In this document: in pieces, positions 1 through 27,300 of the stretch
Layout: every line of letters starts with the position of its first letter
How positions within the stretch are numbered: position 1 is the first letter of the stretch
Assembly: GCA_044892525.1 (NCBI GenBank)
Contig: CM097886.1
Location: 177,680,312-177,744,082, forward strand
Origin: Schmidtea polychroa
Lineage: Eukaryota
DNA length: 63,771 bases
Direction: 5' to 3'
The notes under the pieces: model-generated
What the model saw: only the letters and a program-made list of their open reading frames with translations
What the model was told of the DNA's origin: nothing
Databases searched by the model: none
Program-made: the position numbers and the translations under genes

Positions 1-547
1 AAGCCGTGCCCAAAGAAGTCTAATCAGAGAACAATCCGAGGCACTGCATAAGGTTTACGTGCAGGCGGCTACAACCCGAAAAATAGTGCAGATTCCCATC
101 CGAGAGGCCGATGACATCTTTCCGCCTCATCACAACCTTTCCTCGAATCCATCTCCACCGTTCAAGAGACCGTGCCGAGACTGCGTCGAAACCGAATTGT
201 CCCCCAAGCGACCAGATGTTGTCATCACGGGCACCAGTAAGCCCCCCACTGCTAGTCCATCCGTATCAGTCACCCTTCTGCAAGTGGCATCTTCAAGCAA
301 ACCCAAGCGAAAACAACTCTCTCGTGCAGAGCGCAAGAAGAGACAGCGCGAGCGCGCTACTACAAAGCCAAACATCCCAGCAATGGAGGACTCAACCAAC
401 GGTGGCAACTCTCACGTGTCCATCGACCTAACAACGGGACCCTCGGCACGAATCATATCAGCCGCTGGCGTAATGTGGGAAGAGAACGCTTCCGAGTTTT
501 TCAACCTCGACGAATTATTCGCCGACGCTGAATGGGAGAAACAATAA
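1..547 (+). CDS. 3' part of LTR-encoded 250-aa protein (start upstream of window)
   Basis: Identical to the 3' part of 26007-26759; the listed 59..547 ORF is its tail. Confidence 0.65.
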   Translation, partial: SRAQRSLIREQSEALHKVYVQAATTRKIVQIPIREADDIFPPHHNLSSNPSPPFKRPCRDCVETELSPKRPDVVITGTSKPPTASPSVSVTLLQVASSSKPKRKQLSRAERKKRQRERATTKPNIPAMEDSTNGGNSHVSIDLTTGPSARIISAAGVMWEENASEFFNLDELFADAEWEKQ

Positions 548-670
548 AATCCCAGTGGCGGTCAGGATGAGGAACAAGGATCCGATCTATGTTGATTACG
601 ATGTTTTCTCTTCTTTCGATAAACGTTAGTAAAGTGTACAGCTGAATCCTTGTGTCATAACCTTGAAATT

Positions 671-676
671 AATAAA
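671..676 (+). terminator. Polyadenylation signal in LTR (also 26883-26888, 53095-53100)
   Basis: AATAAA followed by the GT-rich TCTTGTTGTCTT, ~125 nt after the stop of the LTR ORF and ~400 nt before the LTR end. Confidence 0.55.
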
Positions 677-1088
677 TCTTGTTGTCTTACACGTCTTCGT
701 TCATGAATAATTAGACTTTAATTAAGTGGGTCGAGTAGAGAACCCGCAAGATCTAGTGAGAAATTCCCAATTTGCATTCAGCGAATCCCGATAAGCGGTT
801 GTGTAAGGAAATGGACGTAAGCCCTTCTATCGGCAGTCGTGAATGGGAAGTCGAGGCCTCAGCAAGGAGTAGTTTTAAGGCAGAAGCTCACCTGCTTGCT
901 GGCGTCTCGCCTGCATAGTGCAGTACCAACGTGAAGTGATTCACGGGCACTATGTTGGAAGAAAGTTATGTGGGGTTTCACTCCAGGTTGACAAATCGGT
1001 GGCACCTTTTATTCGAGATGGACAATCAACCCTTAGACCCGTCAACATGGTAGAGTGGTCAGCCGAGGTGTAACCCCAACATGATTTT

Positions 1089-1106
1089 TGGGGGCTCAGC
1101 CGGGAT
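1089..1106 (+). promoter_or_regulatory. Primer-binding site, tRNA-Pro type
   Basis: TGGGGGCTCAGCCGGGAT matches the classical tRNA-Pro PBS TGGGGGCTCGTCCGGGAT at 16/18; it lies 7 nt after the LTR end and is absent after the terminal LTR. Confidence 0.8.
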
Positions 1107-1423
1107 CTACAGTCGATTGAAATTTCTATTAACGAATGCGAAATTCACCGGGATTTTCATAAAAAATTAAAGGGATTTATCACATCGATTTTCTGTTTTC
1201 GACCGACCATTGCTTGACGAATGCAAATTGACTATTGATTATTAAATTATATCAGGAACCAAGTAGAGAAAATCAAAATGTAGATAATAGAAAAATTAAG
1301 GATATATATAAATAAAGGAGATAAAGTAGTCAAGTTAAATAATTAACAATGGTTAAAGAAACCAATTAACGAATTAACTATTAATTTACTACATATTATT
1401 AAAACATTACTTTTCCAACAGCT

Positions 1424-1909: not shown

Positions 1910-2505
1910 AACGGCCGGCGATGTAACAGCAAGTATACGATGTTTGAACAAGAATGCATGAAATTGTTGAAGTAACACGTACTGTTAATGATTCAATCTT
2001 TATGTTTATGATAAATAAATTCGTCTTTAAAAAGTTTTGATGATTAGGACTAATAAAATTTGCATGACGAATGAATATTTGCGTGTTTGTTTTGTTTTAT
2101 TCTTTTTCTTCGGAATCAAATGAAGAGAGGGTTGAATAACGTGGAATTAGTCCCAATATAGACTGCAGGGGTACAAACCGAGCCACCTTCGGGCGGTACG
2201 TCTTATTGCAAGAACCCGTTGGGAGGGGATAACTGATCAACCCAAGTAAGAAGCGTAGGGCGGGGTACCATCGCATATGATGAGAAGTTTTTGCGACATG
2301 ACTGATCACCATGCCAATGTAGAAATGGATCATCGCGATCGTCGTGCGTTTTGAGCAAGGGGGGAAAGGGGAAACACTCCCAAGCGGTAAAGATTAAGTC
2401 GACAAATTAAAAGTAGACAGAGAAAATGGTAAACTAGAGTAAAAGAAGAAAAGAGAAATAGAAGCATGCAGAGCGAGGAATATTGAAGCCGAGCTGTCGA
2501 ATAAT

Positions 2506-3224
2506 CCAGCCGGTCAAGGAGGAAGACTGAGCTGTTGAATAGTGCCAGCCAGTCGTAAGGTCGAGTTGTGAAAAGTCCAACCGATCAGGAAGGAGGAAGA
2601 TTGAGCTGTTGAATAGTGCCAGCCAGTCGTAAGGTCGAGTTGTGAAAAGTCCAACCGATCAAGAAGGAGGAAGATTGAGCTGTTGAATAGTGCCAGCCAG
2701 TCGTAAGATCGAGTTGTTGAATAGTCCAACCGATCAGAAGGAAGAAGATTGAGCTGTTGAATAGTGCCAGCCAGTCGTAAGGTCGGGTTGTGAAAAGTCC
2801 AACCGATCAAGAAGGAGGAAGATTGAGCTGTTGAATAGTGCCAGCCAGTCGTAAGGTCGAGTTGTGAAAAGTCCAACCGATCAAGAAGGAGGAAGATTGA
2901 GCTGTTGAATAGTGCCAGCCAGTCGTAAGATCGAGTTGTTGAATAGTCCAACCGATCAGAAGGAAGAAGATTGAGCTGTTGAATAGTGCCAGCCAGTCGT
3001 AAGGTCGGGTTGTGAAAAGTCCAACCGATCAGGAAGGAGGAAGATTGAGCTGTTGAATAGTGCCAGCCAGTCGTAAGGTCGAGTTGTGAAAAGTCCAACC
3101 GATCAGGAAGGAGGAAGATTGAGCTGTTGAATAGTGCCAGCCAGTCGTAAGATCGAGTTGTTGAATAGTCTAACCGATCAGAAGGAAGAAGATTGAGCTG
3201 TTGAATAGTGCCAGCCAGTCGTAA
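2506..3224. repeat. 74-bp tandem repeat, ~9.7 units, with 222-bp (3-unit) higher-order period, in the pre-gag leader
   Basis: GAGCTGTTGAATAGTGCC recurs at 2529, 2603, 2677, 2751, 2825, 2899, 2973, 3047, 3121 and 3195; the variant unit (GATCGAGTTGTTGAATAGTC) is every third unit. Confidence 0.95.
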
Positions 3225-4533
3225 AGGCCTAGAAAAGCGAGAGATAGCAGTTAAGCTACAATGAGATAATATTTAAAATTACTAGTGATACGGAATATTA
3301 AAGCTAGCTAGAACAAATTGAATGTAATTTTGAAAATTCGAGTTTAGAGAGGAAATAAACGAGCTCGTGGAAAAGAAAACAAGATTATAAGGAAAAAGGA
3401 AAGGGAAGAAGGAAACGAATTAAAGAGATAATAGAAAATAAAGAATAGATGAAACAATGATAATGAGTAAAGAGGAAAGTAACTAACTAATTAAAGGGAT
3501 CCCAGTGAAGTAGAGAAACTCTACGGAATTTTTTTTTTGGGTAAACCGGGAAAATGTATTTTTATCGGTTCCAGAGTAGAACCGAGTGGGATAATAGTAA
3601 ATACGAAAAGTAAAACAGCGACAACAGCGCAAAGGAATAAGAAAACGAAGGGGGGTAATAAGCAGAGACCGACAACGACCTATTTTTACTATAATTGATA
3701 ACGAATAGATAATTATTACGACTTTATAGATAATTGTTACTACCCCATATAGATAATTTAAAATCGACGGAAAATACGGGCTGATGGGATATTATAAACC
3801 GCAGACAGGATTTCACAAAAGATAGGGGAAGCACAAACAGAAACCTAAAAGGTGTCTGTTTTTGAATGTTGTAGAAAGAATGATGAAGTCGTGTAAGCAA
3901 ATGCAACACGAGATCATTTTTTCATTTTAGATATCAAGCCAATCCAGCCAACCAAGACAATCCAGAACCTGCACAAAAGGAATTCGAAGAAAATCGACAA
4001 TCAACCAAGGATAAATCCATTCAGAACCCGCACCGAGAGACACAGCAACCGGAAGACTCCAGAACGGAAGAAGTATTAGCAGCCATCTGCCAAGGATTAG
4101 TAAATCTCCTCAGGATCTCAGTAGCAGATTCATACAGAATATTTATCGAAGGAAACACAATCAGAACCGAACGCGTCCGATTCAATAGCCGCTAATTACC
4201 AAGAAGCGTAAGAAAGGAATCACGGATAAACCCAATCTTAGATCTTCTAGTAAGCCAGGAGACGTATTATTTTCAGGAGACGAATTACAACAACTCAAAA
4301 GAGGACGATCCATTAAACATCAAAGAGGAATATCACAAGGATCCAGAAGAACCAATCAAGTACCCATATTTGACCAAGAAAATCTCGGATATACCCCTAG
4401 TCGATCTCGAAGTAGAGAAAGTCTGTCCGATATCACTAATAGTTTAGCAACGTCAACCGAGGAATTATCAGCCCAAAGTTTAGTCACATCGTTAGACAAT
4501 TTAAAAGAAACAGACGAACCTAGAACACCAATC

Positions 4534-5439
4534 ATGACGAATGTCGTAAAAACCGACGAGTATAAAGAGAAGTTCAGAGGAGAACCGTTCAACGGAAATG
4601 CAAACAAGCTAGCAACGTTCATAACTAATTTTGAAGTTTATATCACTGTGTGTGGATGGACACCCGAAGCAATTAGTAAAAGGATGCCGTTGTTTTTGTG
4701 CGATAGTGCATTAGAGGTATATTTAGAAGCTAAAGAGAGAGACACGAAATTAGAAAAGTGGGAAGATATTAAAACATTCCTGAAGAAAACCTTCGGAGCC
4801 AGTAAGCCAATCAACCAGGCGTTGGGCGAACTAGCAAATAGGAAACAAAGAGCAAACGAATCGATAACATTATATGCCAGTGAATTGCGGAGATTAGCAA
4901 AGAAAGCAATGAATGGAAAATTACCCGAAGAAAATCTGATCGGTTATTTCATAGAGGGATTACGCCGAGAAGAAGTAAGAGCCTCAGTAGGTTGTCAAAT
5001 GTGCAAAACATTAGAGGAAGCCATAGATTGGGCTACAAGATGCGAGCTCCACCTTCCAGCTCAAATGAATATTATGCAAGAGGAGGGAAGGATAGCGACA
5101 GCAATAGCGAAAGCAGATAACGGAGATAACAACAATCAAGAACCGAAAATGAATCAATTTATACCAGGAGCGCACCAAATTTTCAAACCACCACAAGGAC
5201 GATCAAACGGGAATAATGGTAATCGTAACAACCCGAATAATGAGAACAATTTCAATAATCGGCGAAATATGAACGATAACAAGCAGTGCCGAACATGCGG
5301 TAAACCAGGACACTGGGACAGAGATTGTTATAGAAATTCAAATTGTAATCGTTGCGGACGGCGTGGACATACCGAAAATGTATGCCAATTGCGAGGCTGT
5401 TTTAACTGTGGTCAGCCAGGTCACATCTCCAGAGATTGC
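4534..5439 (+). other. gag: Gag: capsid-like domain plus three CX2CX4HX4C zinc knuckles (5287-5439)
   Basis: PFNG...W..IK..LKKTF...LANRKQRANESITLYASELRRLA...YFIEGL pattern; CRTCGKPGHWDRDC, CNRCGRRGHTENVC, CFNCGQPGHISRDC. Confidence 0.92.
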
Positions 5440-8400
5440 CGAGAAAGGGGCCAACAACAACGACCACCACAGCGAAATAATAATTATGTAGCGAATCCGC
5501 AACGACAAAGTAACCCTAACGAAGGAAAACAAATGAACGTTATGCAGGAAATTTCGCAGATGAAACAGATGATGCAGCAAATGATGAGACCAAGACAAGA
5601 ATCAGCACCACAACAAACCCAGAATATACGTATGATGAGGAGTACCGAAAATCTCAACAATTATGAAGTGCATCAACATGTACAAGAATGGCAAAGGCTA
5701 CAGGCCGAGGAAGAGAGGATAAAACAAGAACGCAACCAACAACGACAAGAACAACCATTGCGAATAAATATGATGAGGTTAGTAAAAGACATGAAGAGCC
5801 AGTATTGCTACAATTACGGGAAAAGCCCAAGGGTAGTACCCATGACTGAACCAGAAAAGGTAAAAGAAATAACAACGGAAATGAAAACAGAGAATTCAAC
5901 CACGATTTTAAAAGGAAACCAGAGAATTCAGAAAATATTCTGGAAAAAGATAAAGGATAAAATCGAAAAAGAACATAATAAAGCGAAAACCGAGACAGAA
6001 GATGAAAATAACAAGAGCAAGGAACAAACCAGTCAACTAAACCACCGAATGCTACAAGAATCAGAATCGGAAGAAACAACAATATTCGAAAGAAAGAAAC
6101 TAAAGAGAGTACCAAGGATGAGAAACTTGCAAATCAATATGATGAAAAGGACAAAAGATGTAGCATCATCAGACGAAGAAGAAGATTATGTAAGTAGTTT
6201 GGGTGGAGAAATACTACAGCCGAATGAAATAAGCGAACCCCCAAAAGGGGAAATCAAAGAGGAAGAAAGCGGAAACGAGATAACCAGTGAAAGTGAAGAC
6301 GAAGATATCGAAATAAAGTTGAGAAAAGCAAGGGAGGAAGCGATAAAACAGGTAGCCGAAATACTCCCAGTAGTAGTGAGGAACCAAGAGTTCATCGACG
6401 TAATATCATTCAGGCGATTCGTGCAAAAAGTGATGAAATTGGAAAGAAACGAGAAAGATCTAATACCAAACGAGGAAAAATCAATTATAAAAAATTATAT
6501 GGAAAAAATGAAGCAGGCCGATACCACGCGGTATGTAATAAAAATTGGAACGAGTAGAGGACTTGAAAGAATGTGGATAAAAAATACAGTCACCGACGAA
6601 CTTTTCGATTGGATACGAGAACATTTGGGAAGTTCGAGAAAGAAAGAATATCTGTATCAATACCAAGGAGAACAGATCAAACCAGATAAGCACTTAGTAG
6701 ATGCACTAATATGGCCAGGAGAAACGCAAATACTGAAGTTGCATAAAGAAAAACAACCAGCCAACCTTTACGATTGGGCTAAAGATGCCAAGGCAGAATA
6801 TGATTTTAATATCAAATTGAAATTAGAACAAATAAAACAATGTACTCTGAGACGAAACCTGGATAAGCTGATCAAACAAATTCAAGAACAAGTAGAAGAC
6901 AACTGGGATTTACTCATCACCAGACGAGCCCCAGCCATGTACGAACTAATGAGCCGGTTGCGAGATACAGAAATGCTCCGAATGAGTGATTGGAGAACCA
7001 TAAATTTGATCCACAAATATGGAAGGTTAAAAGAAACCCAGCCACAGAGGTTGGAAATAACCATATGGTTACCGAACGAAGAAAAACGACGAATAAAAAT
7101 GAGCAATCAGAGTACAGTGGATGACTTGGTATCAAAAATAAACCAAGAGATAACGGAAAAGGTACGTAGCGAAAGTAGTGATGGTATGGTGGATGATGTA
7201 GTCATGATGTACGATAAGATAATATTACGAGCGGAGGACGACACCTCGTTAAGCGAAATGGGTATGTGGGACAATCATCAGATAATCAGGATAGTACCAA
7301 TGGATGAATTCCGAACAAGAGATGTAACATATCAAAAAGAAATACGAGACCGGATGAAAACGTTATATCAAAAATCTACAGAAATAATTGAAATCCACCA
7401 ACAATGGTTAAAAGAAAAAGAGCTACAAGGAAAAATCACGAAATTAAATACCAGATCCTGCAGACGAACCCCATGGGAAAGAGTATGGAATGCAGAAAGT
7501 AAGGAATGGGAAATCCGGAAAGGAACCTTCGTAGAAACAGACATTGGTGAGACAGAAAGTGAATCGGAGGAAGAAGAAGAGGAACCTCCAGAATATGAAG
7601 AGGAAGCAAGGGAACAGACATCAGATGACGAAAGCGAGACGGATGTCACATCAGAAAGCGAAAATGAAGCGAGACATATTCATGCAATGAGGAAAAAGGA
7701 ACGTGAATATGCTGATATGGACGGCGAGGAAGCGGCGGAAGCAAGAGAACGAGAAGAGAAAGAAAGATATAAACAATTAGGCGATATTTTAGCAATGGGA
7801 GCGAAAAATCAAAAACGCCAGGTAGTAGCGTTGGCTAATATCATCTTAAAAACATCAGAGAATATCCACAATCTGAGAGGAATGGCAAAGGCAATAGAGG
7901 AATACCGGCAATATAATGAATGGTATCCAGAACAGCTAGAACAAATTATTCGAAAATGGAGAAATCAGGAATGGGCACAAGACACCCAGGAGAGGTATCA
8001 CATCCGAATCAAGTATCCGGACAAGAGCATCGAGGAACTAGAGGTGCATCCAACAACAAAAATTAGAGAATTAAAAAAGAAATTAGCATATGAAACTCCA
8101 TTCCATCTGCAACTGTTCGGAAAATCACTAGACGATAATGCAGACGTCGGGATAACACCCATGAGATTGGAAGAGACAAATGTATTAACAATGGCAGAAA
8201 CGTTGGGAAAACCGTTAAAAAGGAAAAGTAAAATTACTAAACCAACAAAAGGCAGTTTGAGTACTCCAAGTCCGAACAAAGCACCAAGTAAATCTAATGA
8301 AACTGAAGAAGTTGAAGAGATAATCCTGGAAGATAGTGACGATGAACCAGGAGAAAGATCACCGCTATTAGTGAGATGGCCGACAGGAGCCGAAATGTGG

Positions 8401-11400
8401 ACTAATAACCAGCCATCAACGAGTTATCAACAACCAACGAAACTGAACATCAAAGAAATCATCGACAATACTACGGAAACCGAAACGGATGAACAATTCC
8501 AGAAGCAAAGAGAACCAACGAAAGTAACACCAGAAAGTCAAACCGACAAAATAATAGACGAATGGAATGAGTGGCTAAGAAATAACGATAGCTCATTACC
8601 CAGAACGGATAACGAAAGAAATCCGAATTACGAAAATACCAGAGAAGCCGGAACGATGATGGAAAAACGGGCAAAAGGAAGACCTAAGAAACAAGGAGAA
8701 AAGTCTGAGTTAAAAACCAAAGAACAATTAAAGCAAGAACAAGGGCAAGTTCGATTAGAAAAATTGGATAAAATAGTATGGGATCTAAAGGAAGCCCAAC
8801 CAACGATCGAAAGAGGAGAAAAATGGATACGAGAATTGTTAAAAGATATATTAATAATAACAAACCCACAACTTAGACGTTTGTGGCAACGGAAAGTAGC
8901 CAGTACGGAAGCTAGACAATTATGGCACACCATTTCGGGGATAATCCCAAAGTTAATCAAAGAGAAAACGAAAACCACCAAAACGGATTGGGATGAAACA
9001 AAGAGAGTGATTGAGCAGCTCACGACGAATGCAAATGATGACGAACATCACCTAGTGGTAATCACGTATTTGATGTATAATTTGATGGGACTAGCCGCGA
9101 GGAAAATACCAAATAAACAATTTGCAAATCATGTGGAAATGACCGTTTCAATCATAGAGAATACTATTGAACCACATATTATTCGTGCAGGAGGATGGAA
9201 AAGACTGATACAAGCGCCACGGAAAAATGAGCAAGAAAGATCGATGCAAGTTAGATTGAAAAAATTGTTAAATGAACTAGAATGGGAACTACCGATGAAA
9301 GATCCCGCAAGCAGAAAAGCATCAATAAATTCGTTAATGATGACTATGATGATATGGATGTTGTGCACAAGTGGAGCAACAGGTTTTACCATCTACGATT
9401 GTGATAATATGATAATGAGAGATAAATACTCATTGAGAGACATAGAAGAATGCAGACAAGCCTCACCCAACAAATTGGACATCGTGAGAACAAAAGTTAC
9501 TTACCATGTATATCAAGAATCAGATTTCATCAGAACGCAAGCAAGGGAATGCGTAGTATCAAAAAAGGTACTCGCATATTACTGTGGACAATATTCGTAT
9601 TCGACTCTTATACTACCCGGTCTGGATAAGGAAATCGTATCAATACAACGAGAGGATTGTAAAGAGCTATTTAGAACCGGAGCGCTAAAAATGCATAACG
9701 GAGTGACAATTCACGGACAAACTGGAATGATTAAAACCGAAAGTGTTTACGTAGCCGGAAAAGTAAAATCATCAGATGGGTCATGTAACGGAGGTACGTA
9801 TACGATCCGAGGCGAGGTAATATCGGGAGTTGTAGTGATCGAGTCTTACACGGTCGAATTAAAAGAATACGAAGCGCAATTTGACGCAAATAATTACCAA
9901 ATGAAGACCAACCCAGCGTGTAAAGCTACAGAAAACGTATGCAGGACAGGAGTATCAACTATAATCTATGAAGCTAATACCCAAAAATGCCGACTCCAAC
10001 TGTTAAAAAGTGCTTTGTTCAATGAAGTAAAAGGAGAAATATATGAGAACGAGAACGACGAGGATGGAAACGACAGAGTGAGAATGCGAAATGGAAAACC
10101 AATGCCACCATCTCCCAGAGAAAAGAGACTTTCAACGCAGAAGACACCAACAGCATTAATCACAGACGATCCAGATCTAGGTATGAGGTTTATCAAAGAG
10201 AAAGAAACCACCAAATGTGACAGTATAGTATATAAAACCAATTACGCAGGCATCTATATGTCGAGACAAATAATCGATAGAGCAGTGGGAAAGATAGCAA
10301 CGGAGGACGTAAAACTATACTTATATGCAAATAATAAAATGGATTTTCTATTTCATCGTGGACAAACGACCTTGCAAAAAGTATATTACGATCTGATACA
10401 AAACGATTGTTCATTGAATAAAGAAATATTGAAAACAAAGCTAGCTATTGCGATAACGCACCCAGATAACACGATGCCATCACTCCCATTACCAGATGGA
10501 CACTTTGGTAGAATGGTAGGAGAAGTGATGTACACATACCAGTGTACCAAGACGTATGCACGAATGCCAGAAAAATCCATACTACCCGAAAAGAGATGTG
10601 CAAATGAATTAGAAATCCGTTATAAAGGACAAAATCGATTCGTCCAACCAGTCACTAGAATTATGAATCCAGTGGGTTTCTACCCAAATCTCTTTAACTG
10701 TTCTAATGCATACGGACCTTTATATGAAAGGCCCGATGGGAAATGGATGATGTTACCGGGAAAAACCATATCCGAGGAGCCCAAGAAATTTGGATTAATA
10801 GAACTCGCCACAGAGCTGGATTTCAAACCTATAGACGTGTCAAACGGTGGTATGTATTCCCCAGAAGATCTAGAAACAGCACGACTTAACGTACTCTTCC
10901 CAGCCAGACGAGAATCCATTTTGTCTAATATGGTTACAATAACTGGGGGCACAAATTATCAATCAGGCCCGAATTACGAGCTGCTATTATCGCCAGACCA
11001 TTTTCAACAAGCTACGTCAAACATGATGAAAGCAATGTGGGGAAGATTCTTAGTTTTTGGACAAATGATGGCCGGGATATTAGGGATCATACTCATAATT
11101 CAGATAGTCAGAGTAATACTAACACAAATGTTAGCTTGTTTCGATATATACAAGCGGGAAAAGAAAGTTAACTGGAAAATGATAGTAGGTTTCTTACCAT
11201 TTTTAGCTAAGACCATGGTATTACATGGCCACTCAAAAGACATCCATCGGATAAAGCGATTGATAAAAATATTAACAAAGATTAAAGGAACCGACGAAGA
11301 AGTAGGCAGACGATTCCGGAAAGTAATGTACGATGAAGCAACAAGACGACAATTGAAAAAGAATAAGCCAAAATTCTTGGACCGATTTAGAAGCCAATCA

Positions 11401-14400
11401 TCTAACAGCGATAGTGACGACGATGATAACGGGAACGATAAATGTCTTTATCCAAACAGAAACCCAAACGAAAAACCAATGGAAACGGCACCATATTGGG
11501 AAAAGGAAAAGACAAACACCTGGATCGCCAATGGAAGCTATATACCACCGGATATCGTGGGACCACAAGCAGCTTTGACCATGACACAAAATATGTATCC
11601 GCAATTACCGAGCCAACCCGGTATGCATTATATGCCGACACGACGTACCAAAAGTGTAGATCAAGCAGATGACGTAAGAACAATCGCAGCAATGAGTCTG
11701 CCTGGAGGTCCAGCAGTAACAGTTATGATTCAAATCAATGGTAAAGAAACCAATGCTATGATAGACACAGGAGCTAATGTATCAGCGATAGCGATTAATC
11801 AAATTCCCAGTAAACACTGGAAAGATATCGAATCAACAACAATTCACATCATAGCATGTAGTAAAGAAACAGTGGACGTGGTCGGAAGATGGTGGACTAC
11901 ATTGAGATACCAGGACAACGAAATTGAAACGTATTTGGCAGTAATACCAAAACTTAGCGTACCATGCATAATCGGAACGGACCTGATGCCAGAATTATTA
12001 AAAGAAGTCGTAATAGACTTAACAACTATGTGTCTAAAAGACAAAACCGGTAGAATATGCAAAATGAATGCAGTAATCAGATGTCCAGAAAAAATAATAG
12101 TACCAGCGAAATCGCAGATGATTTGTCAGATAAAAGTGGATACGGGTATGGAAGGAGAAGTTATCTTTGAACCAAGCAAGTCATTCGAAAAGCGACGAGA
12201 ATTACCACTCGCAAGAGAAATAATCACCATAAACCAAGAAGGAGTGATACCGCTCAACATCACGAATTTCGAAGAGGAAGACAAAATCATTTATGAGAAC
12301 GAAAAATTGGGAAGATTGACCCCAATGATGGACATAGAATTACCGAAAGTGACCAACGAGATGATCAAAGATGATGAATTATGGACAATAGATAGTATGT
12401 TGTTGACGAATAATGAAAAGAAAAAATTACACCGATTGTTGGTAGAATATAAAGATATATTCGCCATCTCAGACTTAGACTTGGGTACATGCGATGTTAC
12501 CCTACATGCAATACCCCTCATAGATGAAACTCCAATTGCATTAAGACCATACAAGCTAGCAGAAATGCAAAAAGAAATAGCCGAAGCAGAAGTACAAAAG
12601 ATGCTGGACGCAAAAGTAATCGAACCAAGTTGCTCACCTTGGCAATTCCCAGTGGTCATGGTGAAAAAGAAGGATGGCTCCCAACGATTCTGTATCGATT
12701 ATCGGAAGTTAAACGCAGTGACCAAGAGAGATACCTATCCATTGCCGGACATCAATGAGATGTTATTGATGTTGCAAGGGGCAGCATATTTTACTTCTTT
12801 AGATCTAAAAAGTGGATACTGGCAGATTAAAGTCAAAGATGAGGACAAAGAGAAAACAGCTTTCACGTTGGGACGAGATCTATATCAATTCAGGAAAATG
12901 CCATTTGGACTGACCAACGCACCAGCATCATTTCAACGGTGTATGAACTTTGTCACCCATGGAATCAAACAATGTATGGTATATATTGATGATTTACTAA
13001 TCTATTCAGCGACATTTGAACAACATCTGGAAGATATCCGAAACGTATTTATTAGATTAAGACAGTGGAAACTCAAACTCAAACCATCAAAATGCGATTG
13101 GGCAAAGGAAAAAGTCACGTTTTTAGGACACATAGTGTCAGCTAAAGGAAAGGAGCCAGATCCAAGAAACATTGAGAAAATAAAAACATGTCCAGCACCG
13201 AAAACTGTCACCCAAGTTCAGGAATTTCTAGGATTATGCGGATACTATCGCAAATTTATCAAAAATTATGCAGGAATTGCAAAACCAATCCAGGAATTAG
13301 TAAAGAAGGATATTTCGTTCATTTGGGAAAAAGAACAACAACAGGCGTTCGAAACGCTGAGAGATAAACTAATCGAAGCACCTATCCTCGTACACCCAGA
13401 TTTTAAGAAGCCATTTCTATTGGCAACGGATGCAAGCGGGTACGCGGCAGGCGCGATTCTGGGACAATTAGACGATGAGGGAAAAGAGAGAGTAATCGGG
13501 TATTACAGTCGAACATTCAAAAAGCACGAAAAGAACTATTCGGTAACAGAACGAGAAGCATTGGCTATAATACAAGCTATCAAACACTTCCGATATTTAC
13601 TATGGGGACATGAGATATGCATAACCACAGATCATCAACCATTAGTGTGGTTAGGGCAACATAAAGAAGCGTCCAGTAGACTGATGCGATGGGCCATGCA
13701 ATTGCAAGAATACTCCCCATTTATAAAATTCAAAGCGGGAAGAGCAAATGCCAACGCCGATTGTATGTCAAGATTTATTTTCCCAGATTTGGTGGATTCC
13801 GAAATGCAACGCATATGCTTAATAGTAGCGGAAGATTTGGATTTCTGTCAATTACGAAAGGACCAACAAGAGGACGCGGAATTAAAACAAATTATCGATT
13901 ATGTAAAAACCGGAAAGACAGAGGTATATGCGAAAGACCAAAAATTAAAAGAACATATGGATAAACACCGACACCGATATATTATAGAGAAAGATTGGTT
14001 GCTGATAATGGATGGGGAAAAACGATTAATGTGTATACCGGAAAACCGACGAAAAGAGTTACTAACGCAATATCACGATGGGAGATTGGGAGGACATATG
14101 TCATCGAAAAAGACGTTAGCAAGAATGAAACAGAAATATTTTTGGCCTACGTTAACTGAAGATGTAACCGAATGGGTAAAAAATTGTCTAACTTGTGCAA
14201 CCAGGAAGAATACTGGATCGAAATGGAAAGCACCTTTAACGCCAATGCCAGTACCAATAGAACCAATGACAATGATATCCATGGACGTAGTTGGTCCACT
14301 ACCAGAGTCAGATAAAGGAAACGTTTACATTCTAGTGATCACAGACTTTCTTACGAAATTTCCAGAAGCATTCGCGATGCCAGACCAAAAAGCTAAAACA

Positions 14401-17400
14401 ATCGCAAAAATTTTGGTAGAAGAGATATGTTGCCGATATGGAACACCAAAACAAATCTTAACCGATCAGGGAACTAATTTTATGAGTGAGATAATGAGCG
14501 AAGTAACAAATTACTTCAAAATAGCAAAACTAAGAACATCTCCATACCACCCTCAAACCAATGGGATGACGGAAAGATTTAATGGAACACTTACACAAAT
14601 GTTATCAAACTACGTTGACCGTCACCAACGAGATTGGGACGAATATATAAACCTATGTCTTATGGCGTACAGAATGTCGATTCACGCATCAACGAAAATG
14701 AGCCCATTCAAATTAATGTACGGAAGAGAATGTAACATGCCAATGGACCTGGAATACCAACCACCGATATCGCAGTATATGGAGATCGATGATTATGTTA
14801 CGAAATTCAAGGAAAGAATGCAAGAAATTTGGGAAACTGCGGGATTAAATATCAAGTTCTACCAGGAAAGTTATAAAGATTTACACGATCGAAAGAAAAA
14901 CGTGAAGCAACATACGTTCCAAACAGGTGATTGGGTAATGATAGAAACCCCGGAATTAATTCCAGGAACCACAAAAAAGTTACAACGCAACGGAAAAGGA
15001 CCATATGAGATCTTATTCGTAGGCGAAACTAATGTAAGAGTGAAATTGGTAAATAACCCCTTTACCAGACCAATATACGTAAACGTGGCACGATGCAAAT
15101 CAATTCCAAAAACAGCCACTAGTCAACCAGAAGGCCGTACATTAACCACACGTTCGCAAACCTACCGAATGAACATGATGCAACAACTCGCAGAACCGAT
15201 CACTGGACGATTAGGTATCCAACCATCAGAAGCGGAAAAGATTGTAAAAGAGGTAAAAATTAAAATACCTGGATGGGCAAAAGATCGATTAGATTTCGAA
15301 ATATTAGGAGGATTATTGACGATGATCGAGAACTATGCAAATAGAGAAAGGACACACCCATTATTGCGAGTAGTCAAAAGCCAATGGCCAATATTATTTA
15401 CAATAACAGATCATTACGGAGACACACCATTACACAAACTCATGAAAGTAGGTAACAACGAGCAAATACTAGAAACAATAGAAGCATTTCACGACTGCAA
15501 GCGATCAACAGAACAAACAAACAACCAAGGTTACACACCATTAATGATAGCCGCAAACAAAGGCAAAACAAAAGACATTATAACCGCATTACTCGATACC
15601 GGATCGAAAATAACTACACAAGACCACGAGCGGAAAAACGCTCTACATCATGCTATCGAAGGGAGAAGTACCGAGGCGTTCACGTCATTGATGGAACTAC
15701 TATCATATGAGGACAATCGGGAAGTCGGAAACATGTATGATGGATTGTTAACAGCGATCAAAGAAAAACTGACGACAATTACCGGAATATTAATTACATG
15801 GAGAAATCCAATTCGAAACGATTATATGATCAACGTAAACGAAGCGTTCACGAGAGGAGAGAACACGCTGATGAGAGAAGCTATGAAAGGACATCAGTTA
15901 TTCGAAATCCCGAATCAATTACTAGAACGAGGGATAAAATTCACAAATCATAAAGACGAACAGTTAGCAAAAAAGCGAATCGACACATTCGAAAAATCCC
16001 TATTCCAATTTACTAACCAAGTACGAAATAAATATTGGGAAACGGTAAGTGTGTTATATATGATGGACACAATGAATAACATCCGCGAGAATTACCTGGA
16101 TATTATCCAAATACTTACAGCAGAGGAACGAATCAATAATCCAAACGGAAAGAAAACGAAAATAAGGTATGAGAAATCCAGGGAATCAAAGTCAACAACG
16201 AACCAAACGGTCACAAACAACGTCATCGAAACCAAATCAATGAGTATAGATCAAGAGGCAATAATACGCAAAGCAAAAGAAGTGTTCTTTGAGGAAATGC
16301 TAGAGCTGCCAGACGAAATAATATTGTCAAAAATAATAAAAGCCGTACACACATACGCAAGAGATCAAACCACGGATTTAGATATCGGGAAAATCAAAAC
16401 CTTCTTGCCTCGAGCATTTACGATGGTAACGAAGGATTCCAGAACACCCCTACAACAAGCAATACTAGCAGCGAAAGAAAATAGAGCAATAACGATCGTG
16501 AGAATCCTTGGAGAGATGGGCGAGGAAACCAACACGAAAAATGAACAAGGTGAAACCGCCATGATGTATGCAGCTATAACGAAAATACACCCAAAAACAC
16601 TCCACATCCTACATCAATCAGGATCGAAACTAGACGAAAAGTCCAATGAAGGAAATTCCACCTTGGACTGGGCAACCATACAGCCAAACTTAGAAATGAT
16701 CAGATTTATTTGCAAAAATGCGACAAAAGAAGAAGTCGAAAATATGTGCAAAAACACATCTCAGTTTCAATGGAATGCGGTACGGAAAAATCTAGAAGCA
16801 ATGAAATTATTATTAACCTGGAGAGTACCACAAAATAATAAATATGCGATAAATGTAAACGAATTCTACGAAAACGGAGAAAATGCGATGGTAAAGAATA
16901 CCCTAACTAAGGGGGGGACACCTAAAATAATTTTAATAGTATTAAATAGAGAAGACCTAAAATTCACGCAAAATCAGAACGAGCAACAACGAATTGGGAA
17001 ACATCGTCGTATGCAATTGAGAGAGTTAGTTAAAGAATGGAATAGAAAGAGACATGCTGCAACGGGTAGAAAAGAGTTTGAATTCGAAGCAAAATTAGCA
17101 AGAAACAGAGTGCTAACAGCATATCGCAGATTATTGAACGATATAAATGTCGAGGACGACATTTTAAACGACAGCGGGGGAGATAAACACGATGACAATA
17201 ACGGAAAAGGCCGAAAGGAGGATAAAGAGAAAAGAGAACAGGAGGAGGGTAAACCGGAAAACAAGGATTCGGATACGAAAAGAGAGGGAAACAGCCCGGG
17301 AACTAAGACCAAAGAGGAGGAAAAATCGAATAATGGAAAACAGAGGGTATGCCTACCTTTCACTAACAAAGAAATAGAGACAAATATGATATTAATGATA

Positions 17401-18547: not shown

Positions 18548-18907
18548 ATGGATCAAGGAAATAACGAAATGAACCACGATACAGTAACTGAAGAATTATG
18601 GAAGCAACAATGTGCCGTATTAGCACAATTAGTGTCCAATTTGCAAGAACAAGGACTGACGATGCACAGAAACCTGATCGAGAGTATGAACAGAGGATTT
18701 AGTTATTTGAAGATAATTGAAGACCAGAGGTTAAAAATCGAACAAATGCAAAGAGGGATAGAGAGGATAACCCAATATAGCCGTCGACAGGAAATTGAAA
18801 TAGACAGAATGATGGAGGAAGCAGAACAGACAGAAATAGAAGACTGGTCGGAATGGCTAATGAATAGAGAGGAGAGCGGACACGAAGCCGACTCTTCCGA
18901 ACCCTAA
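18548..18907 (+). CDS. 119-aa coiled-coil/acidic accessory protein
   Basis: Same strand and codon style as the element; AG|gaATG upstream; flanked by AT-rich spacers. Confidence 0.6.
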   Translation: MDQGNNEMNHDTVTEELWKQQCAVLAQLVSNLQEQGLTMHRNLIESMNRGFSYLKIIEDQRLKIEQMQRGIERITQYSRRQEIEIDRMMEEAEQTEIEDWSEWLMNREESGHEADSSEP

Positions 18908-21630: not shown

Positions 21631-21798
21631 GGGTGGATGAAAAAATGAAAAACTAAAAACCGGGACGTATATCCCAAACAAAAAAATTAAAGTATTGTAA
21701 AAGTATTCAAGGGACTGTAACCCAAACTATTAAATTTTATATCAATGTATACGTATAAGTCGCACTATAGCGCACCATTAACTGTACATATTATAGAT

Positions 21799-22497
21799 AT
21801 GAAAATCGAGGAAATGATAGAAATTATGAGCGACGTAGAAGAGGGAGAGATTGAGGCAGAAACAACAGAAACACAAACGCTAAAGGCCGAGTTACGGGAA
21901 GAGAAATACGAAAACGGGAGATTAATAAACAAATACCTGGAGGACCGGAAAATGATAAAGGTGTTAAAGAAAGAGTGCGAAGCGTTGGGGGAAATAAAAA
22001 GAGAAACGGAAGAGGAAAATGAATGGCTACACGAACAAAGGAAGCGAGGGAAAAACTGGGAAAAGATAGCGGAAGAGCTATGGAAAGAGAGGGCAAGCTT
22101 CAAAGCAAAGGAGGTAATCCAAGACTACTGGAAAACTGAGGCGAAGGAGCGCCAAACAGCTATAAATAAATTAAAACGACAACTAGAAGAAAACCAACGG
22201 GAAAGTAAAGAAATGAGGAAGTGGGTCCGCAAATATAGAGAAATAGAAAGAAAACATCAACAACAAAATTACCTGCAAGAAAACGAACAAGATCTCCTAC
22301 AAATCGAGCTAAAAAGAAACCTTGAAAAGAAAAGGGAAGAAATTAGACGCTTGGAAAAAGAAATTAGACATCTAAAGAGAGAAGCCCGTGAAAAAGACCG
22401 ACAATTGGAAATGCTGCCCGAGTTAAGACACAGGGTAATTAAAGCAGAGTCCACCTTGATGAGAATCGGTGAAAATAATCCAAATCAGAACCATTAA
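21799..22497 (+). CDS. ~232-aa coiled-coil accessory protein (likely start 21799, not 21745)
   Basis: The charged helical sequence starts at MKIEEM, preceded by TTATAG|at; the 18 upstream codons look like AT-rich spacer. Confidence 0.7.
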   Translation: MKIEEMIEIMSDVEEGEIEAETTETQTLKAELREEKYENGRLINKYLEDRKMIKVLKKECEALGEIKRETEEENEWLHEQRKRGKNWEKIAEELWKERASFKAKEVIQDYWKTEAKERQTAINKLKRQLEENQRESKEMRKWVRKYREIERKHQQQNYLQENEQDLLQIELKRNLEKKREEIRRLEKEIRHLKREAREKDRQLEMLPELRHRVIKAESTLMRIGENNPNQNH

Positions 22498-22552
22498 ATT
22501 AAGGGTCATTAAAACCAATTGTAAATAAACATAATGAATGTATAATAGTATC

Positions 22553-23206
22553 ATGCGAGGCGAGATGATGATAACAATGATGGTATTGATGATTCTGATG
22601 GAGAACAAACAATTAAACGCCCAACCGAAAATCGTACGAGATTACCGCAATCAAAATCAAGAACCTAAACAAGAATCCGGCAAATGCACATACCCTATGA
22701 CCGTAAAAACCCATATCATCCAAACCATTCAATCAACCCGATCCCACATCAACAACATCCAAACAATGTGTAAAAAGAACCCCATTTGTAAAATGATAAA
22801 CAAACAAATCTTCGAACAAAGCCAACAGATCGACCAGTTGGAACAACAAATGCAACAAGAGGATTTTGAAAATCTTGTAGAAAAGCCAAAAACACCTCCC
22901 GAGATCAATGACACCCATTATCTCATATATGTGGTGATCGCAGAGACCCTCCTCCTATGTCTACCAATATTCATGAAAATTTACGAAATTCGAAATAGAT
23001 GTAGAGTCTCGACATCAATAAGAGTAACCTCGAACCAAAATCCTCAAGAAGTGCCCCTGACAAATCTTAACCCAACCCCATTCCGACCTCGAACCCCGAG
23101 TAATCAACCAATCCAGCCGAAATCTAATAGTCAGACCTATCTCAACATCAATACCCAAACCAACCAACAGCCGCCAGCAGAAGCATCAATGGTTAACAGT
23201 TCATAA
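22553..23206 (+). CDS. ~217-aa type-I membrane protein (signal, small Cys/helical ectodomain, TM, P/N/Q-rich tail)
   Basis: Signal MMITMMVLMILM..NA|Q; TM YLIYVVIAETLLLCLPIFM; ATAATAG|tatcATG at 22553; AATAAA at 23313. Confidence 0.7.
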   Translation: MRGEMMITMMVLMILMENKQLNAQPKIVRDYRNQNQEPKQESGKCTYPMTVKTHIIQTIQSTRSHINNIQTMCKKNPICKMINKQIFEQSQQIDQLEQQMQQEDFENLVEKPKTPPEINDTHYLIYVVIAETLLLCLPIFMKIYEIRNRCRVSTSIRVTSNQNPQEVPLTNLNPTPFRPRTPSNQPIQPKSNSQTYLNINTQTNQQPPAEASMVNSS

Positions 23207-23768
23207 ACTCTAACTCAAACATTTGTGTTATTATATGTGGAAACTTTTATTGTATGTACAAACTATCACCTTAAGTGATACTTGCTTGATCTTGCTTTGA
23301 CCTAGATCTTACAATAAAAATTTTATCATTGTTGTATAATTTTCGTGTTCGTGTTATATTTTTTTTTGAATGAATGAATTAAGTTAATTATGCAATTGCG
23401 GGACGCAATTTTGATGGGTCCCCGAGTGATTTGTTGGGCTGAGTCGAAAATTTAATCGTTGAAAAATAGGAAAGTAGGGAAGTAGAACATTAAGAAAAAT
23501 AATAATAAAATAAATAAAATCAGAAATAAAATAGAATAAGATATAAGGAAAATAATAATTAAGACATAAGAATTAAAACAAAAAATAAAATTAAGAAAAG
23601 ATTAAAATAGAACAAGTTGACAAATAAATAAAGAGGAATTCAAGAAATAATAAGGAAATTAAGGAAATAAATAGAAAAACATATTAAAAATAAAGAAAAT
23701 AAGGAAAAAACAACCTAAAAACAAGAAAATTATATTAAATTAATAGAAATAAGCGGTACTCAACTCTG

Positions 23769-23856
23769 ATTGGTCCGCACAAATAAGAATTTGATATATA
23801 TACAACTACCAAAAACATTAAATTTACTGTTAACCCCGAGCATTTCATAGGTAAGA
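23769..23856 (+). promoter_or_regulatory. Candidate Pol II promoter and first splice donor (also +26212)
   Basis: ATTGG (reverse CCAAT) at 23769, TATATATA at 23795-23802, then AG|GTAAGA at 23850/23851, downstream of a ~300-bp A-rich tract. Confidence 0.45.
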
Positions 23857-26006
23857 AAAATGTTTACTGTTACTGTTAACCCCGAGCATTTCATAGGATC
23901 GACACTACTAGCCAAGCAACCGTCATTCAGAAAACTCCACGACTATTCAAAACCAGTTCAGAGACCGAAATACCATTCATCACAATCATCGACATCCAAC
24001 GGACCACCATTAGAACTATTTTGGAACGAACAACATTGAATTTTGACTCAGCCTAACAATAGTAAGGGGTATTTCATTTGTTTATAGATTTATTTAAGTA
24101 TTTGCAAAGCTAATAGTAATGTTAAATATTAACGATTAAATATTTTAGTTAACTCTCTTCATTTGATTCTCCATTTTAATAACTTTAACGTATTGATGGA
24201 ATTTGTATTATTTAAGTATTTCAGAATTAATAAAATATTTTTATCCAGATGTCCGTATTTTATTTGAATTAAAGATTTTATAAATTTTCATTTAACGAGT
24301 AACGTGGAGTTGAGATACTCCATGTCATGGTATGAGGTGCCTTCGGGAGCTCAGCCGGTGGACATGGAGTATTTCAATCACGCAGCTAGATTGGGCCGAA
24401 ATGTGAAGGCTTCTTCACGGGTCCTATCGCTGAAGATGCGACTAAATTATCACAAGGGGTCATGGTTAAAAGAATCGCTGGCAGACAATGATTTTCACAG
24501 AGATAGTCGTACGAATGAAGGGATTTTCAAGGATTTACACAGTGACTGAGGGCGTCGCATTCCTTTTTCTTTCGTCAAGTCGTTTTCGTAAATCTTACCC
24601 CTATTGAAAAATGAGATCCAGACAACGATTTAGTGAACTTCGTCAAAAATAACGACATCTCATAGTACGCTTCATCTGGAAACATGGTTTCATCAAGTTA
24701 ATTGCGACAACGTCTATTTGCCGGACTCAGTAGAACTAATTTCGTATGAAATTCCGTTATCATAGACCCAATGTCATCTAGCCTGTCCAGATTGTATGTC
24801 AGGTTACGAAAGTATCCTAAAAACTTTAACTAACTCGAACCTGAAAAATGCGAGATTCTACGAAAACCTCTCTAATATTATAATCAGAAAGTTTTTATAG
24901 ACTTAGCTATTTAAAAATTATAAACGGTAAAATATCACCAAATTTAATTAATAACATTTATTTCTACAATAAGAGCCAGGTCTTCACTGTATACATCCAA
25001 ATTATTGAACCTGAGAGAAAATTTCGAATGGCTAAGGGCAGGTTTCATCGAGACGGCATTACATCTGAATAGGAAAATCCGAGTAGAATGACGAGAGTAG
25101 TAATATGCTTCAGTATTTGGTAGCATTATTCCCTCGACGATCACTGAAAAGATCCAATAAATTTCCAAACGATGGTGATCATTCACACAAGTTGATAAGG
25201 GTAAAATTCCGCGATGAGAACTGACGGCAGCATAAATCATGATTCAAATAAATCACTGTGCAGAGAAAATCATATGACAGCAGGATCGATGAAATCACCG
25301 TGAAAATGGCATACACCAAGTGAGTGAGATAAGATAGTAGCCATACACGAATCTATGTGGTGAGAGCACAGAATATCAGACTAGCATACATAATAGTCGC
25401 GACACGTGACATTCACAATAGGTCGATAATGTAATCAACTAGTCGACAGTAGTATCCGTAAATTTGGACATGTGTTATGACCGATGAGATATCCCATTAG
25501 GGTGTTCAAGTAATGGCTGATGTAAACTCATCACATATTCTCAGACAAATGGTAGACAATATAGATAATCACATTCACTACCGAATTAAAAGTGCACTTC
25601 CAATAACAAATTTCGAATCAAAAAATATGTTGAGAATAGCGATAGTAATTTGTTTTTAATAAATTTAAATAGATAATTTATAGCAAGGTGTAGTCGCATA
25701 CTATAATGTCCCTCTACTAAAGCATTATTATATTGTTTCACCAATATTATATTTACCCCCTATTAATTATTACGCCCCTCATGTATACGGTTAGATCAAT
25801 AGAGAGTCAAAGTTAATAGCATGCGTCAAACCGATGGCCTTTGGTTAAATAAATTGTTTCAACAAATAAGATCCGTGGTAAAACCGGATTGTAGAATAAG
25901 TTTTCCTTCTTTTCGTCGGTCAAGCATCCACGAATGGCCGTAGGTCGTATCTAATTTATTCTAAAATCGTACGTTCTACGTTTCATTAGTATTATTTATA
26001 GCAAGC

Positions 26007-26759
26007 ATGCTACCAACCACTAAATCAGCATTACGGCCGTGCTTCTCGTGCGCGGATAAAAATACGGTGATAAAGGACCTACAAACTCAGATTGGACGTT
26101 ACAAGAGGAAGATAGACGAGCTGGAGGGGACATGGTTTAGTCCCGCTCGGATGAAAGAGATCCAAAAGAAGCTCGATCGTAGCGAGCATTGCCGGGACGC
26201 GCTAATATCTGAAAGCCGTGCCCAAAGAAGTCTAATCAGAGAACAATCCGAGGCACTGCATAAGGTTTACGTGCAGGCGGCTACAACCCGAAAAATAGTG
26301 CAGATTCCCATCCGAGAGGCCGATGACATCTTTCCGCCTCATCACAACCTTTCCTCGAATCCATCTCCACCGTTCAAGAGACCGTGCCGAGACTGCGTCG
26401 AAACCGAATTGTCCCCCAAGCGACCAGATGTTGTCATCACGGGCACCAGTAAGCCCCCCACTGCTAGTCCATCCGTATCAGTCACCCTTCTGCAAGTGGC
26501 ATCTTCAAGCAAACCCAAGCGAAAACAACTCTCTCGTGCAGAGCGCAAGAAGAGACAGCGCGAGCGCGCTACTACAAAGCCAAACATCCCAGCAATGGAG
26601 GACTCAACCAACGGTGGCAACTCTCACGTGTCCATCGACCTAACAACGGGACCCTCGGCACGAATCATATCAGCCGCTGGCGTAATGTGGGAAGAGAACG
26701 CTTCCGAGTTTTTCAACCTCGACGAATTATTCGCCGACGCTGAATGGGAGAAACAATAA
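26007..26759 (+). CDS. 250-aa protein, probably within the LTR: CxxC + coiled coil, basic NLS-like tract, acidic/aromatic C-terminus
   Basis: CFSC; KPKRKQLSRAERKKRQRER; EFFNLDELFADAEWEKQ; TTTATAG|caagcATG upstream. Confidence 0.7.
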   Translation: MLPTTKSALRPCFSCADKNTVIKDLQTQIGRYKRKIDELEGTWFSPARMKEIQKKLDRSEHCRDALISESRAQRSLIREQSEALHKVYVQAATTRKIVQIPIREADDIFPPHHNLSSNPSPPFKRPCRDCVETELSPKRPDVVITGTSKPPTASPSVSVTLLQVASSSKPKRKQLSRAERKKRQRERATTKPNIPAMEDSTNGGNSHVSIDLTTGPSARIISAAGVMWEENASEFFNLDELFADAEWEKQ

Positions 26760-27300
26760 AATCCCAGTGGCGGTCAGGATGAGGAACAAGGATCCGATCT
26801 ATGTTGATTACGATGTTTTCTCTTCTTTCGATAAACGTTAGTAAAGTGTACAGCTGAATCCTTGTGTCATAACCTTGAAATTAATAAATCTTGTTGTCTT
26901 ACACGTCTTCGTTCATGAATAATTAGACTTTAATTAAGTGGGTCGAGTAGAGAACCCGCAAGATCTAGTGAGAAATTCCCAATTTGCATTCAGCGAATCC
27001 CGATAAGCGGTTGTGTAAGGAAATGGACGTAAGCCCTTCTATCGGCAGTCGTGAATGGGAAGTCGAGGCCTCAGCAAGGAGTAGTTTTAAGGCAGAAGCT
27101 CACCTGCTTGCTGGCGTCTCGCCTGCATAGTGCAGTACCAACGTGAAGTGATTCACGGGCACTATGTTGGAAGAAAGTTATGTGGGGTTTCACTCCAGGT
27201 TGACAAATCGGTGGCACCTTTTATTCGAGATGGACAATCAACCCTTAGACCCGTCAACATGGTAGAGTGGTCAGCCGAGGTGTAACCCCAACATGATTTT

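Follow-up and report, generated by a model that had tools for sequence, protein, structure and literature searches.

Overall organization of the element

The window analyzed here (the entire stretch of 63,771 nucleotides of Schmidtea polychroa, positions 177,680,312 to 177,744,082 on the forward strand of contig CM097886.1, assembly GCA_044892525.1) contains a giant Gypsy-type retrotransposon with long terminal repeats (LTRs), which encodes an envelope protein (Env) together with domains of cell-death and ubiquitin pathways. The sequence repeats itself with a period of 26,212 bp, positions 1-27293 being the same as positions 26213-53505 with zero mismatches. Two identical units have one LTR in common (LTR-internal-LTR-internal-LTR), and a single 4-bp target-site duplication, GAAT, brackets the entire dimer. 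The LTR is 3,862 bp long (TGTTGG...CCAACA), the internal region 22,350 bp and the monomer 30,074 bp. A first-pass annotation, made from the letters alone, had described an LTR unit of about 26-30 kb at 1..27293; the unit itself stands but its start does not, as position 1 lies inside the first LTR, 2,781 bp of which precede the window.

The primer site, 7 nt beyond the LTR, comprises 18 nt complementary to the 3' end of the host tRNA-Pro(TGG) plus CCA, and the same site is present in the sampled copies and in a second family of this genome, hereafter the BIR family. The TG...CA LTRs, the primer site, the target duplication and the order protease-reverse transcriptase (RT)-RNase H-integrase assign the element to Ty3/Gypsy (Metaviridae); the RT is of the Gypsy type in a tree whose rows are all Gypsy-type, with no BEL or retroviral outgroup. 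The features are collected in Table 1.

Table 1. Features of the element in window coordinates (ORF, open reading frame; aa, amino acids; dN/dS, ratio of nonsynonymous to synonymous substitution rates; TM, transmembrane).
Feature	Position	Strand	Remarks
First LTR, 3' part	1..1081	+	Identity to the other two LTRs
Primer-binding site, 18 nt	1089..1106	+	tRNA-Pro(TGG) complementarity
RING ORF, 161 aa	1424..1909	+	C-terminal cIAP/XIAP-type RING; dN/dS 0.11
74-bp tandem repeat in leader, 9.6 copies	2516..3224	none
Polyprotein frame of 4,732 codons between stops	4189..18387	+	4,617 aa from first ATG at 4534
Gag	4687..5439	+	Retrotrans_gag domain plus three CCHC knuckles
Three ubiquitin-like domains	6520-6756, 7039-7311, 7987-8205	+
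Bcl-2-fold domain	8749..9270	+
Env	9322..11238	+	Monjiviricetes-type fusion ectodomain
Pol	11722..14553	+	Protease, RT, RNase H and integrase, in Gypsy order
Two ankyrin blocks	15256..17088	+
Second predicted type I membrane protein	17386..18387	+	Signal, immunoglobulin/fibronectin type III (Ig/FN3)-like domain (17560-17910), TM helix, short tail
119-aa ORF	18548..18907	+	No family assigned; dN/dS 0.12
Full-length TRAF, 462 aa	18993..20381	+	RING, Zn fingers, coiled coil, MATH
CC1, coiled-coil-like, 351 aa	20575..21630	+	dN/dS 0.11
CC2, coiled-coil-like	21799..22497	+	Upstream ATG at 21745; dN/dS 0.10
Small predicted type I membrane protein	22538..23206	+	Fastest-changing ORF; dN/dS 0.40
Second LTR, 3,862 bp	23432..27293	+	Common to both units
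Predicted promoter and leader	23769..23856	+	Inverted CCAAT 23769, TATA 23795, splice donor AG/GTAAG 23851
ORF inside LTR, 250 aa	26007..26759	+	Basic stretch like a nuclear localization signal; dN/dS 0.11
Second internal region	27294..49643	+	Identical to first
Third LTR	49644..53505	+	Followed by target-site duplication GAAT 53506-53509

Domains of the polyprotein

The first-pass annotation had listed Env, TRAF, IAP-type RING, Bcl-2-like, ankyrin and ubiquitin-like modules in one LTR unit, and we recovered all of them with Pfam, PDB searches, profiles and Foldseek; the structural matches hold, those of the Bcl-2-like and ubiquitin-like modules by remote homology. Taken singly, the ubiquitin-like segments match weakly (best Pfam ubiquitin E 0.003, for the third domain). 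A profile of 11 ubiquitin-like segments from the clade described below (five families, same genome) matches ISG15/ubiquitin at E 1e-9 and single-domain chains at 1e-6 to 1e-5, and ubiquilin domains are matched as well. None of the three domains has a Gly-Gly end. The ankyrins are recognized at Pfam E 7e-17, and their two blocks represent an internal duplication (26% identity, E 5e-16). The segment between the protease and the RT (aa 2620-2730), where PMC6431247 placed a dUTPase-like domain with HHpred, has no Pfam match but is conserved (dN/dS 0.08).

The relation of the Bcl-2-fold domain to Bcl-2 is remote (Pfam E 0.03; hhalign 87% against seven Bcl-2 ORFs of the genome). Foldseek searches with a model of this region (predicted local distance difference test, pLDDT, 54) listed 38 matches, all of them Bcl-xL, Bcl-2 or BAX, at E 0.03-0.17. 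The BH2-like GGW is retained and the BH1 NWGR motif is absent. A single-sequence PDB search of the region gave no match, the ESM Atlas gave no usable match to the Bcl-2-like domain or the C-terminal beta domain, and relatives of the cargo region were found within 0 of 5,141 candidate full-length polyproteins in the databases. The end of the Bcl-2 fold and the probable Env signal peptide lie about 20-50 residues apart in all families examined (9270-9381 in the window); the signal peptide, once cleaved, could serve as a tail anchor for the Bcl-2 domain. The genome also contains dispersed, multi-copy Bcl-2 ORFs that stand alone (L133, L134); they are 150-180 codons long, many have a single TAG within the matching part, and they are probably carried by another repeat family.

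Env matches the Pfam family Monjiviricetes_fusion (PF24664) at E 8e-71 and has 14 Cys, a REKR site and a TM helix at aa 2293-2311. The C-terminal end of the frame consists of an all-beta domain, preceded by a signal-like stretch and followed by a TM helix. Foldseek relates the all-beta domain (model pLDDT 63) to Ig/FN3-type sandwiches at E 0.005-0.03 with no family named, and its profile matches Tie2 and NCAM2 at E 0.3-0.5. The same ending was seen by eye in four other families of the genome and in four relatives. A motif such as I-N-M-M or M-N-I-M recurs at domain borders of the polyprotein (aa 293, 480, 526, 649, 1164, 3209 and 3661), and these are likely protease sites.

Accessory open reading frames

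Seven small ORFs flank the polyprotein frame: the RING ORF upstream, five downstream, and one within the LTR. The top PDB matches of the RING ORF are the RINGs of cIAP2, cIAP1 and XIAP (E 2e-10). The TRAF protein matches MATH at E 4e-27 and has TRAF2, TRAF1 and TRAF3 as its best PDB relatives. In the alignment, Q-I-A stands in place of the serine triad of the TRAF2 type. No BIR pattern was found in the six frames of the element, and no Pfam BIR in its ORFs.

Copies, age and selection

We searched the 781-Mb host genome for further copies. The Bcl-2 region is found at 94-100% identity in 150 scored places (of 778 candidates) and the TRAF region at 83-100% identity in 150 of 150 scored places (of 1,498 candidates); the 4,732-codon frame is kept in 59 of 150 scored places, as counted by eye and with the two of the window included. 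Twenty copies were sampled for long open frames and for the spread of TRAF divergence, 17 from the main subfamily and 3 from a diverged one. Within each of the 20, the paired LTRs show 97.8-100% identity (best alignment), and the 4-bp duplication is present in 18, while two could not be scored. The family has transposed recently and is active-looking. The RING, TRAF and LTR ORFs occur in every sampled copy, and CC1, CC2 and the small membrane ORF passed the filter in 18, 18 and 16 copies, respectively.

In the main subfamily, pooled pairwise dN/dS is 0.01-0.16 for all parts of the polyprotein, including Env (0.01-0.04), the ubiquitin-like domains (0.03-0.08), the Bcl-2 domain (0.10), the ankyrins (0.08-0.09) and the RT (0.03). 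The RING ORF (0.11), the RING-Zn part (0.10) and MATH domain (0.13) of TRAF, and the CC1, CC2, 119-aa and LTR ORFs (0.10-0.13) are similarly constrained; the small membrane ORF reaches 0.40 (0.23-0.77). The first-pass annotation had named three outcomes that would undo its proposal: absence of the cargo from other copies, neutral evolution, and failure of the structural matches. None of them was observed. The cargo recurs in dispersed copies and evolves under purifying selection, mostly at 0.01-0.16, and therefore belongs to the element and is maintained; one-off host DNA lying between LTRs is ruled out.

Some copies are mosaics, in which RT and Env are at 98.6% identity to those of the window but MATH is at 83% and CC2 at 82%. 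Positive selection on MATH was considered and rejected: the excess variation (83-100% identity among copies) marks a recombinant block with near-saturated synonymous sites, and the dN/dS of MATH is 0.1-0.39, predicted binding loop included. The LTRs also occur as divergent alleles. The best alignments of window positions 23432-27293 with the sampled loci (L157-L176) reach 65-78% identity in most copies, with the RT at about 98%; the alleles retain the LTR ORF, the promoter motifs and one block of 150 bp.

Origin of the tandem dimer

The zero differences over 27,293 bp between the two units raise the question of whether the dimer, as distinct from the element, is an assembly duplication of one element. 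We consider this rather unlikely, for further pairs at a spacing of one unit exist, three in the window family (26.2-26.4 kb) and two in the BIR family (29.2-29.8 kb), and those of the BIR family differ by 0.14%, which is unexpected of an assembly copy. In two pairs both units share the same shortened frame, which points to duplication after insertion. The dimer therefore likely arose by unequal recombination between LTRs once the element had been inserted. At one BIR-family locus (L198), the upstream RING ORF is present twice (1629-2078 and 7873-8322), 6.2 kb apart, which suggests a rearranged junction.

Placement in the Burro group

We identify the element with high confidence as a giant LTR element of a known kind, most likely of the Burro group of planarians. 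According to Arkhipova and Yushenova 2019 (PMC6431247), Burro/GYPSM1 exceeds 30 kb, with an internal region of up to 25 kb and an ORF1 of 4,873 aa. It carries MATH_TRAF, BIR, ankyrin, BCL2-like and Ubi2/SUMO-like motifs, and its env, with matches to mononegavirus fusion proteins, lies in frame between gag and pol; integrated proviruses that interfere with apoptosis and ubiquitination were proposed. BURRO1 RNA rises after smedwi-2 knockdown (PMC8532177). The cargo combination, which the first-pass annotation had thought new for an LTR element, is thus already in print for Burro (PMC6431247) and will be a small surprise to transposon specialists.

The window element has the size of a Burro element, a single giant ORF running from a Gag with CCHC knuckles through Pol, the BCL2-like, ubiquitin/SUMO-like, ankyrin and MATH_TRAF modules (Bcl-2 and ubiquitin-like by remote homology), and a mononegavirus-type Env in frame between the BCL2-like domain and the protease. 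With Burro1/GYPSM1 of S. mediterranea (Jurka 2007 and Grohme 2018, as given in PMC6431247) it shares a length of about 30 kb, an ORF of 4.6-4.9 thousand aa, three CCHC knuckles, the succession of ubiquitin-like, BCL2-like and in-frame Env domains before the protease, ankyrins, TRAF/MATH, coiled-coil ORFs and a high copy number. Unlike Burro1 as described there, the window family has no BIR, carries MATH only in the downstream full-length TRAF ORF and not in ORF1, and has three ubiquitin-like domains, two ankyrin blocks and no dUTPase-like domain detected by Pfam. Two hallmarks of Burro1 proper, the BIR domain and MATH inside ORF1, are thus missing here and are both found in the sister BIR family.

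The BIR family, with at least 149 scored places (among them L197-L200 and L204-L207), has the published layout of Burro1: MATH in the polyprotein, ubiquitin-like and Bcl-2 domains, Env, and a separate 392-aa BIR-RING ORF. Its RT is 87% identical to that of the window and is its sister at 100/100, the RT-integrase region is 79% identical, and the primer site and spacer signals are shared. Homologues of the RING, 119-aa, TRAF and CC1 ORFs stand in the same order, and a C-terminal membrane protein is present. In contrast to the window family, the BIR family has MATH in the polyprotein, the BIR-RING ORF, one ankyrin block and more beta-domains in the C-terminal protein. Both families fall inside a clade (99/96) that counts 18 rows and includes most elements with env in the polyprotein; the tree excludes four loci because of stops or short matches. 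The RT phylogeny proposed in the first-pass annotation therefore supports filing the window element in the Burro group, and not as Burro1, since its sister is the in-genome family with the Burro1 layout; no named Burro reference was found for comparison. The window family may correspond to Burro-2, -3 or -4.

The Burro-like element of Dugesia tigrina (PMC6431247) resembles the window family in having an ORF1 without MATH, a TRAF in an accessory ORF and an env between gag and pol. Its TRAF ORF lies upstream and its Gag has two knuckles, whereas the window family has TRAF downstream, the RING ORF upstream and three knuckles. We know of no comparable cargo in the Anakin-type Pao elements. These are BEL/Pao elements, while the window element is Gypsy. 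They likewise combine an LTR element with a glycoprotein of negative-strand-virus type, that of chuviruses (PMC7642597). Two further kinds of relatives were observed. A smaller env-bearing family has an ORF of about 3,050 codons with ubiquitin-like and Bcl-2 domains, the end of its pol being overlapped by a second ORF of about 700 codons (L119:4713-6809) that is DEDD exonuclease-like by eye and has no Pfam match. Relatives in other assemblies (P0121-P0124, P0133, P0027) have Env ahead of two or three consecutive aspartic-protease domains.

Role of the cargo

We conclude, with a probability of about 0.7, that the window represents a young giant Gypsy family, most likely Burro, whose Env and death/ubiquitin cargo are under purifying selection and probably keep the host cell alive during replication. 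A pro-survival use of the cargo is likely by analogy and from the selection on it. The Bcl-2 fold, the RING E3 and TRAF would damp death or stress signalling, and since BIR and the BH1 motif are missing, we propose that they would act through ubiquitination or scaffolding and not through direct caspase binding or classical BH3 capture. In planarians, knockdown of host TRAF raises cleaved caspase-3 (PMC7586133), and the BIR-RING of Burro1 is reported to shield stem cells against apoptosis mediated by caspases (Lee 2026, cited in PMC13465017). Relative to the account of Burro in PMC6431247, the new finding is purifying selection on Env and on each cargo module in a very recently inserted family. 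The close BIR-less sister also offers a natural comparison for whether the reported pro-survival effect of Burro1 needs BIR.

Several points weigh against this conclusion. As to function, the only module with a reported role in Burro1, the BIR-RING, is the one that the window family lacks, and the role of its cargo is deduced from evidence at the level of sequence. As to placement, the Burro assignment relies on the published layout and the in-genome proxy family, not on a reference Burro sequence; two env-bearing rows fall outside the 99/96 clade; and no clear polypurine tract was seen before the 3' LTR. As to the domains, the assignments to Bcl-2 and Ig/FN3 are based on distant similarity (Foldseek E 0.03 and 0.005; pLDDT 54 and 63), the seven-row profile of the Bcl-2 region that matches Bcl-xL at E 5e-5 contains two rows that came from a Bcl-2 search, and the Env signal peptide is probable by eye and below the hydropathy cut-off. 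As to selection and signals, the 20 copies were chosen for long frames and TRAF spread and their dN/dS was pooled pairwise with no correction for the tree, the short coiled coil of TRAF has a dN/dS of 0.40 (interval 0.13-1.89) that is indistinguishable from 1, and the poly(A) hexamer by itself is weak (8 of 8 here, P 0.005; 5 of 6 and 4 of 6 in other families).

The cargo might instead serve a purely intracellular retrotransposon in the assembly, trafficking and stability of its own particles, with ubiquitin-like spacers, scaffolds and an E3 for the proteins of the element itself, and with Env confined to the secretory path or to touching cells. The missing BIR, BH1 motif and Gly-Gly ends and the replacement of the serine triad by Q-I-A would agree with this, and purifying selection proves use, not purpose. 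We hold it to be unlikely, because a single pathway has supplied several independently captured modules (Bcl-2, cIAP RING and TRAF, with BIR in the sister family) and because the BIR-RING of the sister layout is reported to be anti-apoptotic (PMC13465017).

Predicted promoter, splicing and polyadenylation signals

A single transcript would start from a CCAAT-TATA promoter located some 360 bp inside the LTR, and its short leader exon would be joined to an acceptor right before each accessory ORF, each ORF having its own poly(A) signal; the unspliced RNA would be the genome. The CCAAT-TATA-AG/GTA arrangement, spacing included, is conserved in all 17 LTRs of the main subfamily and in 2 of 3 of the diverged subfamily. 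A YAG stands 1-5 nt before the ATG in all seven accessory ORFs (before the first ATG in five and the second in two), against a background of 33/179 and 15/72 (0.18-0.21; joint P about 5e-5). With the same script, YAG within 6 nt was found for the RING ORF and four of five downstream ORFs of the diverged subfamily and for three of four ORFs of the BIR family. TGTA upstream of AATAAA is an element of poly(A) signals; in five spacers it occurs 17 times where 3.4 are expected, and in two other families 17 times versus 4.2 and 19 times versus 3.3. Because these signals are conserved, one promoter, one short leader exon, and many acceptors and poly(A) sites are the likely design. The predicted splice and poly(A) sites are exact and can be checked with one RNA data set; the leader exon would end at 23850, and the acceptors would precede positions 1424, 18548, 18993, 20575, 21799, 22553 and 26007.

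The poly(A)-like signals lie 25-70 nt ahead of the next acceptor, which would also suit an operon resolved by spliced-leader trans-splicing, a process that occurs in flatworms, in place of cis-splicing from the LTR leader. The donor at a fixed distance past CCAAT and TATA argues against such an operon. Flatworm spliced leaders end in AUG, and the spacings of 1, 2, 4 and 5 nt would put such a leader out of frame, so that we think trans-splicing quite improbable here. Literature on Burro spliced transcripts or a second membrane protein was not found, a weak negative given that Grohme 2018 and Lee 2026 may describe them.

NF-kB signalling

Poxviruses have Bcl-2-fold signalling inhibitors, which the BH1-less Bcl-2 fold resembles. 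The first-pass annotation had named NF-kB as part of the toolkit. A TRAF2/3-like protein and the seven divergent Rel homology domain genes of S. mediterranea (PMC13563047) would fit a poxvirus-style kit in which IkB-like ankyrins and TRAF shut off immune transcription, but the NF-kB label proved weak and we judge such a kit very improbable. The ankyrins are generic: the 60 top-ranked of the 164 PDB matches to the first block include no IkB. Planarians have no clear NF-kB: S. mediterranea has only those divergent genes (PMC13563047), and a table in PMC4484250 gives NF-kB and IkB as not detected in two planarians. Our own search of the genome for the Rel homology domain gave no match and, having no positive control, is uninformative. 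NF-kB is thus probably not the target, and a survival role fits better, since host TRAFs affect planarian cell survival.

Envelope and infectivity

The env frame is open and under strong constraint (dN/dS 0.01-0.04), which makes infectivity plausible from the sequence. The polyprotein would thread the endoplasmic reticulum at two internal signal sequences, leaving Gag, the ubiquitin-like and Bcl-2 domains, Pol and the ankyrins on the cytosolic side and the fusion protein and the Ig/FN3-like protein on the lumenal side, and the protease would then free the parts. Reverse transcription would be primed by tRNA-Pro, the integrase would leave the 4-bp duplication, and co-packaged RNAs would recombine and so exchange accessory blocks, while Env would permit spread from cell to cell.

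More speculatively, the Burro clade as a whole could be a lineage of complex endogenous viruses that are infectious and have an RNA genome of 26 kb. Entry would take two proteins, the negative-strand-type fusion protein and a separate Ig/FN3-like protein, taken from the distal end of that polyprotein, for attachment or as a decoy; at least 8 spliced mRNAs would arise from one promoter, solo LTRs would be complete genes, and death-signalling accessory blocks would be swapped between subfamilies during spread from stem cell to stem cell. We regard this wider picture as tentative and doubtful in its entirety; the second membrane protein, which is clade-wide, bears on whether Burro elements are infectious.

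One promoter and a common leader with many acceptors are characteristic of complex retroviruses and of the adenovirus major late unit, and the window element would be like both if the prediction holds. It would then also share with complex retroviruses the accessory proteins aimed at host pathways and the ORF in the LTR. Unlike in retroviruses, the RT is of the Gypsy type and Env is non-retroviral, and poly(A) signals that follow each ORF recall adenoviruses, not retroviruses.

Other features

Genes for tRNA-Pro(TGG) form a big tandem array with a period of 475 bp near 130.9 Mb of G000 C1 (L183-L186), and the tRNA-Pro 3'-end pattern has 2,186 matches genome-wide. Downstream of the dimer, window positions 62330-63771 hold a Tc1/mariner-like DNA transposon whose inverted repeats are perfect over 70 bp and whose frame of 404 codons has helix-turn-helix and DDE_3 domains.

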